DNA from: a phage
Direction: 5' to 3' (one strand)
Sequence record: QB031382.1
Length of the DNA: 64,000 bases
The first letter of the stretch is position 1. Every line of letters begins with the position of its first letter. The notes under the pieces are model-generated. The model had not been told where the DNA came from, ran no database searches, and worked only from the letters and a program-made list of their open reading frames with translations. The translations under genes and the position numbers were made by a program. Shown one piece after another: positions 2 to 41,509 of this stretch.

Positions 2-1249
2 AACAAGGCCACAACTGACCTGTTGAATCAGAAAACGGCAGCTTTGACTGAGCAGTTAACCACTGCTAAAGGGCAGATTACAACCAACACCAATAATATT
101 ACTGGGTTGGACAATAAGCTGACTCAGACGAAGAAAGACTTGTCTGCGAATATTTCTGAAACTAATAACGCCACTGTTGATCTGATTAACGGCACAGCGT
201 CAGCTATTCGTCAAGAACTTGCTGTTGCTAAGCAGGAGATCATTGATGGTGTTGGCGATGTGTCCGAGATCAGGGCTGCAGTAGCTACAACAGCTAAGGC
301 TGTGACCGACTTAGAGGGTAAAGTAAATGCTCAGTGGGGTACAAAAATACAGGTAGACTCCGCAGGGAATAAATATGTTGCAGGTATCCAGTTGGGGATG
401 GAAGGGTCTGGGGGCCAAGTTCAATCCTACTTCATGGTTAGTGCAAACAATTTTGCGGTATACAATCCTGGCAATGGAACAGCAACCCTTGCTTTCGCAA
501 TCAAGAACAACCAAGCGTTCTTGAAAGACGCTTTTATAGAGAATGGCACGATCTCCTCTGCCAAGATCGCACAAGAAATTTCGTCAAACAACTACGATGG
601 CAACGGGTACCATAAATACGGTTGGTATATTAACAAGAACGGGCACGCCCAATTTATGGATGTGTGGGTGAAAGGCAACATCAACGCCAGTTCTGGTAAC
701 TTCACAGGGGCAGTTAACGCCACTAGTGGTACCTTCCGTGGGGATGTTTATGCCAATAATGGTAGCTTTAGAGGCACCATAGATGCAACCGGAGGTACCT
801 TCCGTGGTCGTGTAGAAGCTTCTGTTATCCGTGCCAACCAGTTCGAAGGTGCAATTGTTGCACACAGGACTTACGGGGATTGTGCTCCAGTATATAACTC
901 TCAGCAAAGGGTTTGCCGTTGGAGGTGGAGATACGTAGATAACGTTTCAGGTCAGGGTAAGAACGTAACATTCTTCTTTAAACTGAACGGTACTCTTGCC
1001 AGCTCCCAACTGAATGCATGGATAGCTGGTCATCAGATCCTTGCTGGCAAGAAGTATTTTAACGACAACAACGGCATGTGTGCGGTAGGGATAACAGGTC
1101 TGGGTGAACAAACTATAGACATTGTTATCGAGATTTACACACCGTGGTCAACGTCGAGCGTGACAGGTGTCACAATCTCCTGTCCCACTGTGATAGTAAG
1201 TCGTTCAAACTCTAGCTTCCAGGGACCTTGGAACGAGTCTCACAACTAA
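2..1249 (+). CDS. tail fibre / host-specificity protein, C-terminal part (5' end lies outside window)
   Basis: Frame open from base 2; repeated G-x-F-x-G motifs (GNFTGAVNATSGTFRGDVYANNGSFRGTIDATGGTFRG) typical of phage fibre repeats; intrinsic terminator follows. Confidence 0.55.
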   Translation, partial: NKATTDLLNQKTAALTEQLTTAKGQITTNTNNITGLDNKLTQTKKDLSANISETNNATVDLINGTASAIRQELAVAKQEIIDGVGDVSEIRAAVATTAKAVTDLEGKVNAQWGTKIQVDSAGNKYVAGIQLGMEGSGGQVQSYFMVSANNFAVYNPGNGTATLAFAIKNNQAFLKDAFIENGTISSAKIAQEISSNNYDGNGYHKYGWYINKNGHAQFMDVWVKGNINASSGNFTGAVNATSGTFRGDVYANNGSFRGTIDATGGTFRGRVEASVIRANQFEGAIVAHRTYGDCAPVYNSQQRVCRWRWRYVDNVSGQGKNVTFFFKLNGTLASSQLNAWIAGHQILAGKKYFNDNNGMCAVGITGLGEQTIDIVIEIYTPWSTSSVTGVTISCPTVIVSRSNSSFQGPWNESHN

Positions 1250-35512: not shown

Positions 35513-36277
35513 TTGAAATTCATCTACAAAGAACACTACCACAAAGGTGTTGTGTGGAGTCTATTTGACGGGTCTGGTGGTGCAGTTATTGACTGGGCAA
35601 AAGCTGGGTACCTGTGCCTGTGCTTTAATGCAGAAGGTGCTGACCACGGCAGTTATGCAGAGGTGATAACCGATCATCCAAATATTCACTATGTGGATTA
35701 TTGGATTGACCCATGGTTCCCTCAAGAAACTTTTTGCATGTATCCAGCTCCAGACTTTATTCTTGCATTTCCTCCGTGCACGCATTTAGCGGTATCAGGA
35801 GCTGCACACTTTAAGAAAAAGCTGGCTAAGGACCCACTGATCCAGATTAACGCTGTAAAGGATGCTCGGGTTGCAGAAGAGTTGGGAGAGATTTACGATT
35901 GCCCGTGGCATGTAGAGAATCCTGTGGGTGTTATGTCCACGCTGTGGCGCAAACCTGATTACCGTTTTCACCCTTCTGATTATGGCGGGTATTTACCGGA
36001 GGATGATGTAAACCCCTGGTTTCCTGAATTTATAGCTCCACGTGATGCCTATCCAAAAATAACTTGCGGCTGGATAGGTAATGGATTTATAATCCCGGTC
36101 ACAAAACCTGTCCCGCAAATAGTTGACGCGGTTAGCGGGTATTCCATGCAACACGCCAAGCTGGGGGGAAAGAGTGCAAGAACAAAGATGATTCGAAGCC
36201 TCACACCCCGTGGCTGGGCAAAAGCTGTATTCTTAGCAAACGAGCCTGCAGTAAGGAGCAGAATTAATGGGAAGTAA
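35513..36277 (+). CDS. cytosine-C5 DNA methyltransferase-like protein
   Basis: Motif I LFDGSGG, motif IV-like FPPCT (PCQ variant), motif VI ENPVG, C-terminal RSLTPRGWAKA resembling motif X; start taken as TTG after RBS AGGAGA, uncertain. Confidence 0.5.
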   Translation: MKFIYKEHYHKGVVWSLFDGSGGAVIDWAKAGYLCLCFNAEGADHGSYAEVITDHPNIHYVDYWIDPWFPQETFCMYPAPDFILAFPPCTHLAVSGAAHFKKKLAKDPLIQINAVKDARVAEELGEIYDCPWHVENPVGVMSTLWRKPDYRFHPSDYGGYLPEDDVNPWFPEFIAPRDAYPKITCGWIGNGFIIPVTKPVPQIVDAVSGYSMQHAKLGGKSARTKMIRSLTPRGWAKAVFLANEPAVRSRINGK

Positions 36278-38345
36278 ATTTATGGCATCTGCATACAACC
36301 GTTTCGGTGAGCCAAACCCGAAAGCAACTAAGTATAAAAGTGGGGGAAGTGTGAAACGAGACTATCGTGATGAAAAAGAAGTTGAAACTGTAGAGACTGT
36401 TTTAGAAAATACCAAAATTGTCCCCGTCCCACAACAAAATATCGGTCTGATGGCTGCACAATATTTTGGTGTGCGATCAGCATTATCCCAAGAAGATGGT
36501 GTGACAGTCACTGCAACATATTTCCCATATTACGACCGCTACGGAAATCTGTCCGGTTTCAAAAAGCGTGACTGGACGATTCCTAAAGAGCAAAGAGGCC
36601 ATTTCTCCGTTGTTGGCATAGTAAAGGCTAACTCTCAGATGTTTGGTCAAAAGCTGTGTGCATCTTCCAACAACCGTAAGCAGATTAACGTTTGTGAGGG
36701 AGAAGGTGATGTTATTGCAGCATGGCAGGCTGCATATCAGATACAAGTAAAAGGGATTCTCACCAACGCTAAAGCCCCGGCAAAGGTGAAACAGTGGGCT
36801 AAAGAGGTCCAGGACGGGATCGATGCAGTTATCAACGGTGGCGATCTGGCAGGAAAACCATGCCTGCCTTTTGTTGGAATTAACTGTGGATGTGCAAACG
36901 CAGTAGATACTTTTGCAAACAATGAGAAGTTTATCCGTAGCTATGGAACAGTTGTGCTGGCAATGGATAACGATGCAGCTAACGAGGTAGAGAAGCAAAA
37001 ACACGTCATTAAAGGTGTTGAGGCCACGCACAATATCGCAGCATTTTTGATGGCTGATAACGTTTACCACGTGGAATATCCTGGCGAGGTAAACGACCCT
37101 GATGGTGTAAAAGATATCCGTGACATGCTGAAGGCTAAAAAGCTGGAAGATATTGTAAACATGTTCCGGCATCCTGTTAAGTATGTGCCGGATGCTGTGT
37201 CGGATTTAGAAGACTTCTCTATCGAATCTTTGCGGAAAAAGACTTCCAACGGGGTAGATATCAGCGCAGAGTTCCCAAAACTGCAAAAAATGCTGAAAGG
37301 CTTGCACAAAGGGACACTCGTAATGCTTACAGGGCCATCAGGGGGCGGTAAAACAACTGTAGCTAAAAAACTGGAACATTGTATTGCAAGATACTTGATG
37401 GACCCGACATGCCCGAAGGCCGATGACTATGAAGAGGATGATCGTCTATGCATGATCCATCTTGAGGAGGACCCAGAGGAAGCAATTAACTCCTTGTATG
37501 CAAACCAGTTAGGGTTTGATGTTAAAGAGTTTGTTGAAGATCCTAGCCAGTTTTTAACTGATCAAGAACACGCAGAGATTCACCAATCATGGGCAAAAGC
37601 TGGAAAAATCAAAGTGTTCAAACATTTCGGATCTATTCCGGTGGACGAGTTGATTACCAAGCTTAAGCAAATGGTTTGCCTGTACCATTGCCGTTATATT
37701 GTGCTGGATCACCTGTCCATGGTAATTTCAGGGCTTAATGTTAAGGATGAGCGAAAAGAGCTGGACATGGCTATGACCCAACTGGCTGCGTTTTGTAAGC
37801 AGTTTAACGTGTTTATCCTAGTGATCGCTCACCTCAAACGTACAGAGATTGTGCCTCCTAAGGACAAGGATGGTAACCCGTTACCTTTCTGGTATCCTGT
37901 GCGAAAAGAGAATTTGCGAGGATCGGCTGGGCTTGAACAGTTGAGTTGGGTAGTCATAGGTGTTGAGGCTGAAGAAATGGTAGATCGTTCTCGTGGTCGT
38001 GTCCGTTTAGTAGGTCTTAAAAACCGTCCAGCAAAAACATTGGGTATTGCGGATACTTTGGTTATGGACCCACATACAGGTAAGTTCCATGATGCCAGTA
38101 ATTGGTACTGGGACAAAGAAATGCAGATGTTTACAGACGGAGAAGGTGGGGAGGTTGTTTGGAGACCTCAGGCCATGTTTGAGGACCAAGAGCATGCAGT
38201 TGTAGAAACACCTATGGGCAAGGTTGTAGCTGATAAGGTTGTAACTCCTACTATTAAGCCTGTTGACACGCAGGAAGACCTCCAGTACGATGATCCATCT
38301 TCTGATCCGGTCCCCGGTTTTGAAGATGATGAAACACCTTTTTAA
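36267..38345 (+). CDS. primase-helicase (TOPRIM primase fused to DnaB/gp4-like helicase)
   Basis: TOPRIM acidic motifs VCEGEGD and LAMDNDAANE; helicase Walker A LTGPSGGGKTT. Confidence 0.7.
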   Translation: MGSKFMASAYNRFGEPNPKATKYKSGGSVKRDYRDEKEVETVETVLENTKIVPVPQQNIGLMAAQYFGVRSALSQEDGVTVTATYFPYYDRYGNLSGFKKRDWTIPKEQRGHFSVVGIVKANSQMFGQKLCASSNNRKQINVCEGEGDVIAAWQAAYQIQVKGILTNAKAPAKVKQWAKEVQDGIDAVINGGDLAGKPCLPFVGINCGCANAVDTFANNEKFIRSYGTVVLAMDNDAANEVEKQKHVIKGVEATHNIAAFLMADNVYHVEYPGEVNDPDGVKDIRDMLKAKKLEDIVNMFRHPVKYVPDAVSDLEDFSIESLRKKTSNGVDISAEFPKLQKMLKGLHKGTLVMLTGPSGGGKTTVAKKLEHCIARYLMDPTCPKADDYEEDDRLCMIHLEEDPEEAINSLYANQLGFDVKEFVEDPSQFLTDQEHAEIHQSWAKAGKIKVFKHFGSIPVDELITKLKQMVCLYHCRYIVLDHLSMVISGLNVKDERKELDMAMTQLAAFCKQFNVFILVIAHLKRTEIVPPKDKDGNPLPFWYPVRKENLRGSAGLEQLSWVVIGVEAEEMVDRSRGRVRLVGLKNRPAKTLGIADTLVMDPHTGKFHDASNWYWDKEMQMFTDGEGGEVVWRPQAMFEDQEHAVVETPMGKVVADKVVTPTIKPVDTQEDLQYDDPSSDPVPGFEDDETPF

Positions 38346-38403: not shown

Positions 38404-40827
38404 ATGAGCATGTGGTCGTTCGATTTTGAGTCATCCGGTTTGCTGGAAGACCCAGATCTTTATTATCACTGCGGTCTGTTTAAAGAGTTGAATAAGAACC
38501 GTTTTATGCTGTTCCTTCCTCTAAATGACCGCACACACTACTCCGAGGAGGATATAGAAAAGGCTAAGAACTTCATTCTGGCAAAGAAAACTCTTTATAA
38601 AGATTTTGAAGTTCGCATAGCAGATTTTTCGGAGTTGGAAGGTTGGCTTACAGGAAATTCTGACTGGTCACCAACAGCTTTGAACTGCCATAACTGCTAC
38701 AGTTATGACTTTATGCTGATGGAAAGATTATCCGGTATTCATTTTGATATGTTCCGTGATCCTAAATGCATGGGGACTATCAACGACCACCAGGTTAACC
38801 TGTTTGATACGTTGGCGATGAGCCGAATCTTATGGCCTGATCGCCCTTTACCAAAAGGTTGTCCTGACTCCGTATTCAACCCGGTTACTAAGAAAATGCA
38901 GCCTGTTGGTCCTCACGGCCTTATGGCATGGGGCTACGCCCTTGGTAACCAGAAAGTTCAAATTGATGACTGGCGCGATCTTCCGTTGTGGAAGTATGTG
39001 GATCGTGTATTCGAGGACGTTATCATCCAGGAGCTGCTCTGGAAAGAGCTGGTAGCGGAATCAAAAGGTGTATTCTACGGCAAATCTGACATGCAGAACT
39101 TTATGTACGATCCTGCCAAAGAGAAGCCGAAAGGGTTCAAGAAGATCACCTGGAAGAACGCATTGCGCCGGGGTATGCTGCAACACTTCCTGATGGAGCT
39201 GCAGGCCCGTCAGGGTGTGTATTTTGACATAGATGGGGCTATTGCTTTACGTGACCGTTGCGATGCGTGGATGAAAGAAATCGCTGATCGTGTTGAACCA
39301 CAACTACCTTTAAAAGAGCTGTCAATGTCTCAGCGGCCCAAGTTCCCTGAAAAGCCGTTTAACCAAGATGGGACAATCTCCAATAATGGTTGGAAATGGT
39401 TAAAAGATAAGCTTGGCTATCCTGTGGACATGAGCGCTTTAGAGTTCAAAGCCCCACCTAAGCGAGCATTTACCTCCACAGGGGATGTCAGTAAGATGGG
39501 GATAAAATGGTGTGAAGAGATGGGCTGTAAAGACCCTGATAAGATGGCTGATTTCTTGAGGGGCTATATTAAGGGCACTTCCACACCACAACCTTTACCT
39601 AAAGAGCTAATGGATCAGGCAATAAGTGATCTACAGCAGAAGCGAATGCCTGACTGCAAGATACCTATGAAAATCAGCAATCAGGACGACATTAAGCGAT
39701 ACCTGATTAGTGCTGGTTGGCTTCCGACAATGTGGAGAACTAAGGATGTAACTAAAGACAGCAAGAAGAAAGCTCTACCTGATGCAGATGTTGATGCACG
39801 AGTATATGCATATATGGACGAGCTTTTAGAGTCAGAGTATTGTGACCTGATTATCAACTTCTGGAACAAAACTGATGCTAAGTTCCAGACAACCGTGCAC
39901 AAGTTCCGAAGCTTTCCTAACTCCGAAAGGATTAAAAAGGAAGTATTCGGGAAAATACGTAGAAAAGCTAGGGCACTTATTACTTCTCCGCAACTGAAAG
40001 ATACGTTTGGACACCTATGCCCTAATCTTGAAAAATTGAACGGAGAGATGGCTAAAGATATCGTCTTGTGGTTATCATTGCGAAACCGCAGATCGGTACT
40101 TGATCCAATTAAGGAGGATAAGGTTGATACTGGTCTTCTTAATCACCCACGTTTGAAGATTGACCATAAGCTTCCTGCTAAAAGTTCTGGGTTAACAAAC
40201 ACTTCCCGACAGAAACACAGTATTTGTGCGAACATGCCTAAACCATCTCCTAAAGTGGTTATGGGTAAAGAGATGCGTAGTCTGTGGGGTGTTCCTCCGG
40301 GATACTTTGAGATCGGTATTGACGGGTCCAACTTAGAGCAGCTTATCGGGGCTTGGGGTGCCTTTGAGTTCGACAACGGCTTGTATTATGATGTTGTAAG
40401 TAACGGGGACGCACACCAAAACAATGCTGAGGCATATACAAAAGTAGCAGGCAGAGAGGTGTCTCGTAACGACGGTAAACCTATCACGTATGGGGTTATG
40501 TACGGGGCACAAAAAGATAAAGTTGCAGACATGCTGGATATCTCTCCAGAGTTGGGGCAAAGGGTAATCGATGCGCTTTGGGATGCCAACCCCGGTCTTA
40601 AGGGGCGTAAAGAGGATCTAGAGAAATTCTGGGAAGCAACAGGTAAGAAATTTATCTACTCTTTTGACGGTCATGCCATTTGGACCCGCTCTAAACACTC
40701 TTTGCTTAATGCATATCAGCAAAATGGCGGTGCCTCGTTGTGCGACTTGGTCGGAATCCTCATGCACCACCAAATGGTGAAGCGTGGATGGTATGATGAG
40801 GGTGTTCGTCGTATTATTTATTACCAT
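38404..40827 (+). CDS. DNA polymerase family A, exon 1 (3'-5' exonuclease, polymerase motifs A and B)
   Basis: Exo motif FDFESSGL; motif A IGIDGSNLEQLIGAW; motif B RNDGKPITYGVMYGAQ; tail aligns with T7 gp5 up to just before HDE; the in-frame stop at 40831-40833 is intronic. Confidence 0.8.
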
Positions 40828-41155
40828 AAATAACATTGTGGCTTCGTGCAGTGATGCACGTCGAAAACCTCTTTAATTGACGGGAAGGCTAAGTTGACTT
40901 TTACACCTAAACATGGTAAAAGCTCAATATGCTAATCCGCAGCGAAGCATCCGAGAGGATGAACGTTCAGAGACTATCGAAAGCATAGCTCCAACATAGT
41001 TTGGTGTGAAGAAGCGAGTAGAGTAGGCCAGCAAGTGCGGTCGAAATGAGAGGTGCCTTGGTAACAAGGCAGTGAGATAGTCCGATCCATACGGGAAACT
41101 GTATGGCTATGCACGTAATGGTGCGGGGTAGCTTAACGACCTACCTGAACTATTG
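40828..41155 (+). ncRNA. group I self-splicing intron (no internal ORF)
   Basis: Conserved P/Q/R/S elements in order: AATTGACGGGAAG (40875), AATCCGCAGC (40934), GTTCAGAGACTA (40965), GAGATAGTCC (41074); exon ends in U (40827) that can pair with GTGG guide at 40838; intron ends in G (41155); splicing gives YYH-DEYQLQV. Confidence 0.8.
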
Positions 41156-41509
41156 GATGAGTACCAACTTCAAGTACCTGACACACCGAAGTATAAGACT
41201 GTGTACACCTTCGACACAATCGAAGAACTGGAAGCATTTAAGGCAGAGCAGGAGGCCAAACTTCATGTGTTCGACGGTCATAAGTACAAAAAGGCACGCA
41301 AGGATGAGGACGGAAACGAAGTGGTTGACAAGGACGGAAATACGGTATACGATCCTATCTTGAACGATGACGGAAAGCTTGAACTTATCTGGAGCCCTGT
41401 GGGCGAAATGGTGGTGCATTGCTTCTGGCAAGCTTCTAAAATGATGGGCGTTCCGTTCCAGATCACAGGTGAATACTTGTGTGGTCGTAATTGGGGTGAT
41501 TGTCACTAA
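41156..41509 (+). CDS. DNA polymerase family A, exon 2 (motif C HDE and C-terminus)
   Basis: Starts GAT GAG (D-E of HDE); ends GRNWGDCH, comparable to T7 gp5 C-terminus GPNWAICH. Confidence 0.75.
   Translation, partial: DEYQLQVPDTPKYKTVYTFDTIEELEAFKAEQEAKLHVFDGHKYKKARKDEDGNEVVDKDGNTVYDPILNDDGKLELIWSPVGEMVVHCFWQASKMMGVPFQITGEYLCGRNWGDCH

Follow-up and report, generated by a model that had tools for sequence, protein, structure and literature searches.

An endonuclease-free group I intron at motif C in a family-A DNA polymerase gene from an rV5-like coliphage

Group I introns interrupting family-A DNA polymerase genes have been described in several phages, namely SPO1, SP82, Bastille, Pf-WMP3, phiL7, PhiI, and W31 (PMC3428280). 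In E. coli DNA polymerase I numbering, the introns of SPO1, SP82, Bastille, and Pf-WMP3 lie at site 674 in the fingers subdomain and that of phiL7 lies at site 676 (PMC3428280), and self-splicing has been shown for the first four (PMC3428280, PMC11878797). The PhiI and W31 introns are placed at "site 881" in the same numbering, as they are quoted in that source (PMC3428280). For Pectobacterium phage CB7, RT-PCR on infected cells followed by Sanger sequencing demonstrated splicing of the polymerase intron that holds CB7_50 (PMC7344957). Among the rV5-like phages, predicted introns interrupt the terminase and DNA polymerase genes of LL12 according to its genome announcement (PMC6658697), and the rV5 paper mentions only terminase introns. 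Intron boundaries in the BASEL phages were set by comparative genomics (PMC8594841), and the polymerases of two of these phages, EmilHeitz and RudolfGeigy, are annotated as two-part joins at the site considered here.

The DNA examined in this work is a 64,000-nt stretch of a phage genome (QB031382.1), referred to throughout as the window. Positions 40828–41155 are a group I intron, and the locus as a whole is very probably explained by a functional phage intron of the IA2 type that interrupts an essential polymerase gene between the motif C codons for His and Asp. The initial annotation of the window located the intron correctly to the nucleotide and correctly stated that introns are known in phage polymerase genes; the novelty that it implied for this instance is not supported in view of the joined BASEL coding sequences, the LL12 announcement, and the homologous CB7 intron. 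The intron is therefore an already known and ordinary feature, present here in its rarer, endonuclease-free form.

The source phage was identified as an rV5-like coliphage (Vequintavirus), with region 20000–44000 of the window being 97.7% identical to Escherichia phage VB-EcoM-WM and 94–95% identical to other members of the genus. Downstream of a primase-helicase gene (Table 1), the polymerase ORF at 38404–40833 terminates with ...RRIIYYHK and a stop codon; a stop of this kind, in frame and shortly after the 5' splice site, is typical of group I introns in bacteria (PMC3073962). It had been noted from the sequence that the ORF ends right after motif B and just before the catalytic HDE of motif C. 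The placement right after motif B is inexact: motif B (KPITYGVMYGA, amino acids 692–702) is found ~106 codons upstream of the splice junction. A second ORF at 41153–41509, for which the ORF finder takes the TTG at 41153 as start, reads (M)DEYQLQV...GRNWGDCH and supplies the remainder of the polymerase.

Exon 1 finishes at 40827 with the T of CAT, the final intron base at 41155 is the G that had been predicted, and position 41156 opens GAT GAG TAC. When 40827 is joined to 41156, the exons add up to 2424 + 354 = 2778 nt and encode 925 amino acids (...RRIIYYH-DEYQLQV...GRNWGDCH, where the hyphen here and below marks the junction), in agreement with the product originally proposed and with the intron-less gene of phage naam, which is also 2778 nt long. 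The intron-less alleles of naam, JeffSchatz, Murica, V18, and ECP32 are continuous (...TATTACCAT-GA(C/T)GA...) exactly at 40827/41156, and a 179-amino acid query spanning the junction gave a single uninterrupted tblastn match of 537 nt with ~99% identity in intron-less Vequintavirus alleles; those met in the same genus include naam, slur16, JES2013, and naswa. Alleles of this gene that lack the intron thus prove the junction at 40827/41156 at the DNA level. The predicted junction in the spliced mRNA would be TATTACCAT-GATGAGTACC (TACCAT-GATGAG), and the predicted junction-spanning peptide would be ...IIYYHDEYQLQVPDTPK.

The same position is supported by the protein and by homologous introns. 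The spliced protein is collinear with T7 gp5 across the junction (...IIYYHDEYQL against ...MAWVHDEIQV, containing T7 H653-D654-E655), so that motif C becomes contiguous, and a Pfam DNA_pol_A match at residues 620–822 also spans the junction, although its score of 31.8 bits is just below the Pfam cut-off of 34.3. All homologous introns fetched from other phages are inserted between the same His and Asp codons and finish in ...TTG or ...AAG directly before GA(T/C)GA(A/G). At the 5' end, GTGG at 40838–40841 pairs with exon CCAT, which bears out the internal guide noticed at first reading; the wobble U40827·G40838 (U(-1)·G11) marks the 5' splice site, and the arrangement TACCAT-A..TTGTGGC is conserved in all homologues.

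Assignment of the 328-nt gap to the group I family was made by covariance model, as had been anticipated. When the whole window was scanned with cmscan against 4227 Rfam families, RF00028 (Intron_gpI) matched 40818–41105 on the plus strand with 75.6 bits and an E value of 2.2e-17, compared with a gathering score of 50 bits, and the match extends over the whole model (positions 1–253). No second intron or other RNA family was found in the 64-kb window by Rfam, even at a permissive E value of ≤0.1. The four conserved core elements reported in the initial annotation were recovered in the canonical order P, Q, R, S and exactly once each in the window, as AATTGACGGGAAG at 40875, AATCCGCAGC at 40934, GTTCAGAGACTA at 40965, and GAGATAGTCC at 41074. 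With such a score and with unique, ordered motifs, the intron is real and far beyond chance. The features of the locus are collected in Table 1.

Table 1. Features of the polymerase locus and of its intron. Intron numbering + 40827 gives window coordinates; (+) denotes the plus strand.
Feature	Window coordinates	Intron numbering	Description	Basis
Primase-helicase gene	36267-38345		Upstream of the family-A DNA polymerase ORF	
Exon 1, family-A DNA polymerase	38404..40827 (+)		808 codons, the last being TAC CAT (Y-H)	ORF, Pfam DNA_pol_A, T7 gp5 alignment
Group I intron	40828..41155 (+)		328 nt, ORF-less, IA2-like	Rfam, intron-less alleles, covariation
P1	40824..40841 (+)	U9-G14 (3' strand)	Exon CCAU 40824-40827 and intron AA 40828-40829 with UUGUGG 40836-40841, 6 bp	Read from sequence
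In-frame TAA	40831..40833 (+)		Two codons inside the intron, before the ribozyme core; unspliced product would have 809 amino acids and lack motif C	
P10	40834..40837 (+) with 41156-41159	C7-U10	CAUU, a part of the internal guide, with exon-2 GAUG, 4 bp	Pairing predicted from sequence
P2	40845..40860 (+)	18-23 / 28-33	Hairpin CGUGCA-GUGA-UGCACG, GUGA loop	
P3	40868..40872 with 41049..41053 (+)	41-45 / 222-226	CCUCU with AGAGG	
P4-P5-P6 domain	40878..40966 (+)			Rfam alignment; P5a read from sequence
P4	40878-40884 with 40936-40941	51, 52, 54-57 / 109-114		
P5/P5a arm	40888-40932	61-105		
P6	40942-40943 with 40965-40966	115-116 / 138-139	2 bp	
P6a	40948..40961 (+)	121-134	14-nt hairpin CAUCC-GAGA-GGAUG	
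P7	40970..40976 with 41078..41083 (+)	143, 145-149 / 251-256	G-A-GACUA (A40971 bulged) with UAGUCC; pseudoknot with P3	
P7.1 and P7.2	40977-41022 and 41026-41042 (+)	150-215	Joined by GUA 41023-41025 (intron 196-198)	
P8	41055..41070 (+)	228-243	Hairpin GCCUUG-GUAA-CAAGGC, GUAA loop	
P9	41087..41106 (+)	260-279	8-bp hairpin, GAAA loop	
P9.1	41110-41125 (+)	283-298	Peripheral hairpin	Covariation and centroid fold
P9.2	41127-41145 (+)	300-318	Peripheral hairpin	Covariation and centroid fold
Omega-G	41155 (+)	328	Terminal guanosine, 3' splice site	
Exon 2	41156..41509 (+)		117 codons and stop; motif C catalytic Asp-Glu first, ...GRNWGDCH last	

Thermodynamic folding recovered part of the P1–P9 architecture. 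The centroid fold independently gives P2, P3, P6a, P8, P9, P9.1, and P9.2, but the minimum free energy fold, which has a modest z-score of -2.3, does not contain the group I core because the core is pseudoknotted; the centroid fold and comparative analysis were used instead. The pseudoknot is formed between P3 and P7, the latter being the helix expected to bind guanosine in group I introns. The predicted P10 has an equivalent of 6 bp in Vibrio phage S4-7. The shortness of P6 (2 bp) and P10 (4 bp) in the window copy counts, together with the modest z-score, against a functional intron.

For comparative analysis, the ribozyme cores of 12 introns at the H-DE site were aligned with MAFFT after excision of endonuclease inserts. 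These were the introns of the window, EmilHeitz, RudolfGeigy, TH18, Klebsiella phage K54_rec3, A73, PVP-SE1, CB7, Aeromonas phage 4L372D, Pseudomonas phage SPA01, and Vibrio phages K412 and S4-7, with contributions from the Vequintavirinae, Pakpunavirus, Plateaulakevirus, and Vibrio phages. Across the 12 introns, pairing is seen in 96.7% of cells, and both partners have changed in 29 of 47 pairs; in controls in which the 3' partners were slid by 1–3 columns, the figures are 36–42% of cells and 5–12 pairs. None of 500 shuffles reached the observed values on four of five measures, and 65 of 500 did so on the remaining one, further pair types. By helix, both-side changes were seen in 6 of 6 pairs of P2 and 4 of 5 pairs of P3 (each with 100% of cells paired), 2 of the 6 pairs of the P7 pseudoknot helix (100% paired), 5 of 6 pairs of P8, and 5 of 8 pairs of P9 (98.9% paired), and covariation was also found in P9.1 and P9.2. 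In P6, 92% of cells are paired; the count of 86% for P4 understates the pairing in P4 and P5, because MAFFT placed some sequences slightly out of register.

The segment between P7 and the 3' strand of P3 is 66 nt long (40977–41042). The formal pair count excludes P5a and P7.1; P7.2 covaries by eye, and all 12 sequences have the same GUA joining P7.1 to P7.2. Extra helices P7.1 and P7.2 joined by G-U-A define subgroup IA2, as quoted in PMC3428280, and by this criterion alone the window intron fits subgroup IA2.

The conserved pairing bears directly on whether the window copy is a relic that lost its endonuclease gene, became catalytically dead, and is now decaying, with the polymerase a pseudogene or otherwise rescued. 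Such a history would be in keeping with the absence of an endonuclease gene and with the rarity of the 328-nt form, which occurs once in 59 sampled records and in four records of the collection. Against it, the standard pairs of the window copy are intact (6/6 in P2, P3, P7, and P8 and 8/8 in P9), its Rfam score is at least as high as those of most scanned relatives, and it is 99.4% identical to the introns in the genomes deposited for phages JEP1 and SYGMH1. ORF-less relatives also score above the Rfam threshold (TH18, 91 bits; K412, 77; S4-7, 69 and 58.5; RudolfGeigy, 64.7). A dead relic is therefore considered highly improbable, and a functional intron is preferred.

An unspliced split gene, with each part translated on its own and the two products combining into an active polymerase, as reported for Aeh1 nrdA split by mobE, is also argued against by the ribozyme core, which is complete, covaries between genera, and would not persist without splicing. 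Many GenBank records do annotate two separate coding sequences, TTG 41153 is accepted by the ORF finder as a start for exon 2, and a non-splicing, endonuclease-containing insertion has been discussed for CB7_245 and Aeh1 (PMC7344957). Separate translation is nevertheless argued against by the absence of any Shine-Dalgarno-like sequence within 30 nt ahead of exon 2 and by the position of TTG 41153, the sole start available to exon 2, within the 3' end of the intron. In addition, the break would part the His from the Asp-Glu metal ligands within one motif, and the homologous CB7 intron does splice. Taken together, these points leave the split-gene reading as the least credible of those considered, with almost no weight. 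Under the preferred reading of a spliced gene, the polymerase of the window phage should be annotated as join(38404..40827,41156..41509), and in the GenBank entries of several relatives that have the same intron, among them SYGMH1, APECc02, and FV3, the gene is wrongly annotated as a truncated "DNA polymerase" and a "hypothetical protein."

If the intron is functional, the following sequence of events would be expected. The polymerase gene would be transcribed as a single pre-mRNA, and ribosomes on exon 1 would halt at the in-frame TAA, clear of the ribozyme core, leaving the intron to fold from P1 to P9.2 with the P3/P7 pseudoknot. An external guanosine held in P7 would attack the bond after U40827, which is set by the wobble with G40838 in P1. 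The freed 3'-OH of exon 1 would then attack after omega-G41155, with P10 (GAUG with CAUU) aligning exon 2, and ligation of 40827 to 41156 would yield the 925-amino acid polymerase. Unspliced RNA would give only the 809-amino acid protein without the Asp-Glu metal ligands of motif C, so splicing would presumably be needed for phage replication. Many phage group I introns need help from ribosomes or chaperones in vivo, and strict self-splicing in vitro is not guaranteed; splicing of the window copy by this chemistry, which is the standard group I pathway, and any protein-free self-splicing, are predictions. The strongest experimental support for splicing is indirect and comes from the homologous CB7 intron at the same site.

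In agreement with what was seen at the outset, no endonuclease is embedded in the window intron. There is no ORF of at least 50 amino acids within it; only ORFs of 30–47 amino acids overlap the intron, together with an out-of-frame ORF of 86 amino acids at 41103–41363. Ten endonuclease or candidate endonuclease proteins that are associated with or neighbour the intron in relatives were searched against the 64-kb window by tblastn and gave no match (all E > 0.3), and therefore no free-standing cognate endonuclease is present within it either. As the window copy has no homing endonuclease gene, the intron would spread only passively or in trans through the HNH enzyme of a co-infecting relative.

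Alignment of the window with EmilHeitz, APECc02, and SYGMH1 revealed that in most close relatives a 528-nt segment with a 507-nt HNH ORF stands in place of the 14-nt P6a hairpin. This ORF has only a weak Pfam match, to HNH_3, and outside P6a the ribozyme of the window is 97–99.7% identical to the EmilHeitz/FV3 form. Among 59 informative Vequintavirus records, sampled evenly, there were 30 empty sites, 14 ORF-less introns of 276 nt (rV5 and RudolfGeigy type), 14 HNH-bearing introns of 842 nt, and a single ORF-less intron of 328 nt, the form of the window; in the collection searched, only JEP1, SYGMH1, HMD-6, and JLBYU08 have this last form. Close relatives thus differ in whether an intron is present at this one site, a feature by which mobile introns are recognized; the other such feature, an intron-encoded endonuclease gene, is lacking in the window intron. 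A hairpin similar to P6a also occurs in the distant, ORF-less TH18 intron, and for this reason the ORF-less state is probably the form that was invaded by the endonuclease gene and not a deletion scar.

The 276- and 328-nt forms are 100% identical in P1 and the guide and 91–92% identical in the 3' third, but only 7–28% identical in P5, P7.1, and P8; they are thus mosaics, which points to recombination between intron lineages. Endonuclease genes occupy further positions in the wider family: PVP-SE1 carries a LAGLIDADG gene in the P7.1/P7.2 region, and the P5/P4' strand is where the frame opens in two other introns, those of CB7 (HNH) and Aeromonas phage 4L372D (unnamed ORF). Related ribozymes from several phage groups thus share a single codon boundary in motif C; some have no endonuclease gene, and others carry an HNH or a LAGLIDADG gene, placed in different loops. 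They form a convenient natural series in which to study the joining and parting of introns and endonuclease genes.

The distribution of the three site states also bears on why the intron is kept. More than a leftover, it might be useful to the phage: by occupying the H-DE site it would destroy the recognition site of the HNH endonuclease of co-circulating relatives and so shield the polymerase gene from cleavage and, in mixed infections, from marker exclusion. Empty, ORF-less (15 of 59), and HNH-bearing sites do coexist in one genus; the closest genome to the window, VB-EcoM-WM, has the HNH form; the recurrence of the P6a hairpin in TH18 implies that the ORF-less form did not arise simply by deletion; and some empty alleles have four clustered synonymous changes directly past the insertion point, as expected of target-site escape. 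These changes fall in the first four exon-2 codons, which read GACGAATATCAG in naam instead of GATGAGTACCAA in JeffSchatz. Trans or collaborative homing of ORF-less introns has been described (PMC3984707). Neutral persistence after loss of the endonuclease, the usual homing cycle, would however give the same pattern, and protection is regarded as possible but rather unlikely. It can hold alongside the reading of a functional group I intron, from which it departs only in the reason given for the persistence of the intron. A little more doubtful still is the broader idea that the motif C site may be an active battleground, where homing driven by the HNH endonuclease of one intron lineage would be countered by an endonuclease-free intron or by synonymous changes; if true, the ORF-less intron would be a selected "vaccination" of an essential gene and not a decaying parasite.

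Compared with known systems, the window intron is closest to the other Vequintavirus polymerase introns (LL12, EmilHeitz, RudolfGeigy), with which it shares gene, codon boundary, and intron family. Most of the other copies in this genus are either 842 nt long with the 507-nt HNH ORF in P6a or belong to the 276-nt lineage, whereas the window copy is 328 nt long with a GAGA-capped P6a. The intron of CB7 (Certrevirus) is a homologous ribozyme at the same H-DE site, with the core aligned throughout, covarying helices common to both, and a blastn match of 75% over the 3' 113 nt. It differs in its length of 687 nt, its HNH ORF starting in the P5/P4' strand, and its longer P5 arm, and CB7 carries a further intron in motif B, where the window has none. 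Since Klenow H881-D882-E883 is taken here to correspond to T7 H653-D654-E655, the window intron would lie at the site of the PhiI and W31 introns, a placement made by residue numbering and secondary citation. As quoted, the PhiI and W31 introns (AY769989/AY769990) likewise interrupt a family-A polymerase, are of subgroup IA2, and have an HNH gene in P6a like the HNH-bearing relatives of the window intron; unlike the window intron, they encode an endonuclease. The introns of SPO1, SP82, Bastille, and Pf-WMP3 are also group I (IA) introns in conserved catalytic regions of a family-A polymerase, but they occupy another insertion site and encode nicking HNH enzymes (I-HmuI, I-HmuII, I-BasI, and I-PfoP3I, respectively). 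More distantly, the td, nrdB, and nrdD introns of T4 are classical IA2 introns that resemble the window intron in having P7.1 and P7.2, an in-frame stop just inside, and an essential host gene of nucleotide or DNA metabolism, and that differ from the window family in their host genes and in their endonucleases (GIY-YIG or the HNH-like I-TevIII).

The two ORF-less introns found at the H|DE site within one genus, the 328-nt form in the window and the 276-nt form in RudolfGeigy, are mosaics in an alignment of the 12 ribozyme cores at this site from which endonuclease inserts had been excised. P1 and the guide sequence are 100% identical between the two, and identity remains at 91-92% from the GUA through P7.2 to P3' and across the 3'-terminal 85 nt, falling to just 7-28% in P5, P7.1, and P8. 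This pattern implies that the intron lineages have recombined.

The homologous ribozymes at the H|DE site also carry differing endonuclease genes, which sit in differing loops depending on the phage. P6a houses an annotated HNH gene in the rV5-like phages and K54_rec3 and an unnamed ORF in A73 and SPA01, and a LAGLIDADG gene is found in the P7.1/P7.2 region in PVP-SE1 (see the table). In CB7 (HNH) and Aeromonas phage 4L372D (unnamed ORF), the reading frame begins in P5/P4'. Because different genes occupy different loops of homologous ribozymes, the comparison points to several independent invasions of these introns by endonuclease genes. The 86-aa ORF that overlaps the 3' part of the window intron is probably spurious.

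Positions of features in the polymerase gene and its intron, and in relatives (window numbering unless a relative's locus is named)
Feature	Position	Strand	Context
969-bp in-frame insertion	equivalent to 40416|40417		between ...GDAH and QNNAE...; VB-EcoM-WM, JEP1, Mangalyan
Motif B insertion site	equivalent to about 40494|40495		~110 codons upstream of H|DE site
P4'-P6-P7 segment	40933-40983		intron nt 106-156
86-aa ATG ORF	41103-41363	+	starts in intron (P9/P9.1 region), continues into exon 2 in another reading frame
First 12 nt of exon 2	41156-41167		
PVP-SE1, LAGLIDADG-bearing stretch	1507-2419 of locus L011		P7.1/P7.2 region
S4-7, group I intron	184-405 of locus L014		upstream
PH357, group I-like core	about 1290-1603 of locus L015		upstream of 'endonuclease VII' gene

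Polymerase alleles that lack the intron fall into two kinds, distinguishable by the 12 nt with which exon 2 opens. The empty alleles of JeffSchatz and Murica begin with GATGAGTACCAA, as do all intron-bearing alleles, whereas those of naam, V18, and ECP32 begin with GACGAATATCAG, which differs by four synonymous changes at +3, +6, +9, and +12, directly 3' of the insertion point. These changes could reflect escape from a homing endonuclease; alternatively, the absence of a co-conversion tract could account for the GACGAATATCAG alleles.

Further insertions were found in the polymerase genes of relatives. TH18, Klebsiella phage K54_rec3, and CB7 have a second insertion within motif B (...TYG|xMYGA), which in K54_rec3 and CB7 contains an annotated HNH endonuclease gene; this site is unoccupied in the window. 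By Rfam, Vibrio phage S4-7 likewise has a second group I intron, lying upstream. The closest relatives, VB-EcoM-WM, JEP1, and Mangalyan, carry an in-frame insertion of 323 aa in exon 1, which is missing from the window polymerase. Its first residue is Cys and its last is Asn, and it matches Hint_2 only weakly (E 0.02). This insertion is probably an intein, even though Gln follows it in place of Cys, Ser, or Thr.

Approximately 17 phage collection records (MG0656xx, e.g. MG065635, MG065644, and MG065654) are titled 'Campylobacter phage' with Campylobacter jejuni as host. These records share 94-96% identity over 24 kb with the E. coli rV5-like genome of the window, and their host label looks doubtful.

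A related group I-like core, with P4, P7, and P9 motifs and ending in ...AACTTTTG, can also be seen in a non-polymerase context in Pseudoalteromonas phage PH357, where it scored below the gathering score in an Rfam scan.

Within the window intron, the P4'-P6-P7 segment shares 94% identity with part of the intron that rV5-like phages such as MaxBurger and rV5_ev158 carry in their terminase large-subunit gene, a gene that lies outside the window. The same segment is ~84% identical to segments from Felix O1-like phages, one of which is annotated within DNA polymerase I. These resemblances suggest that introns of different genes share, or have exchanged, ribozyme modules.
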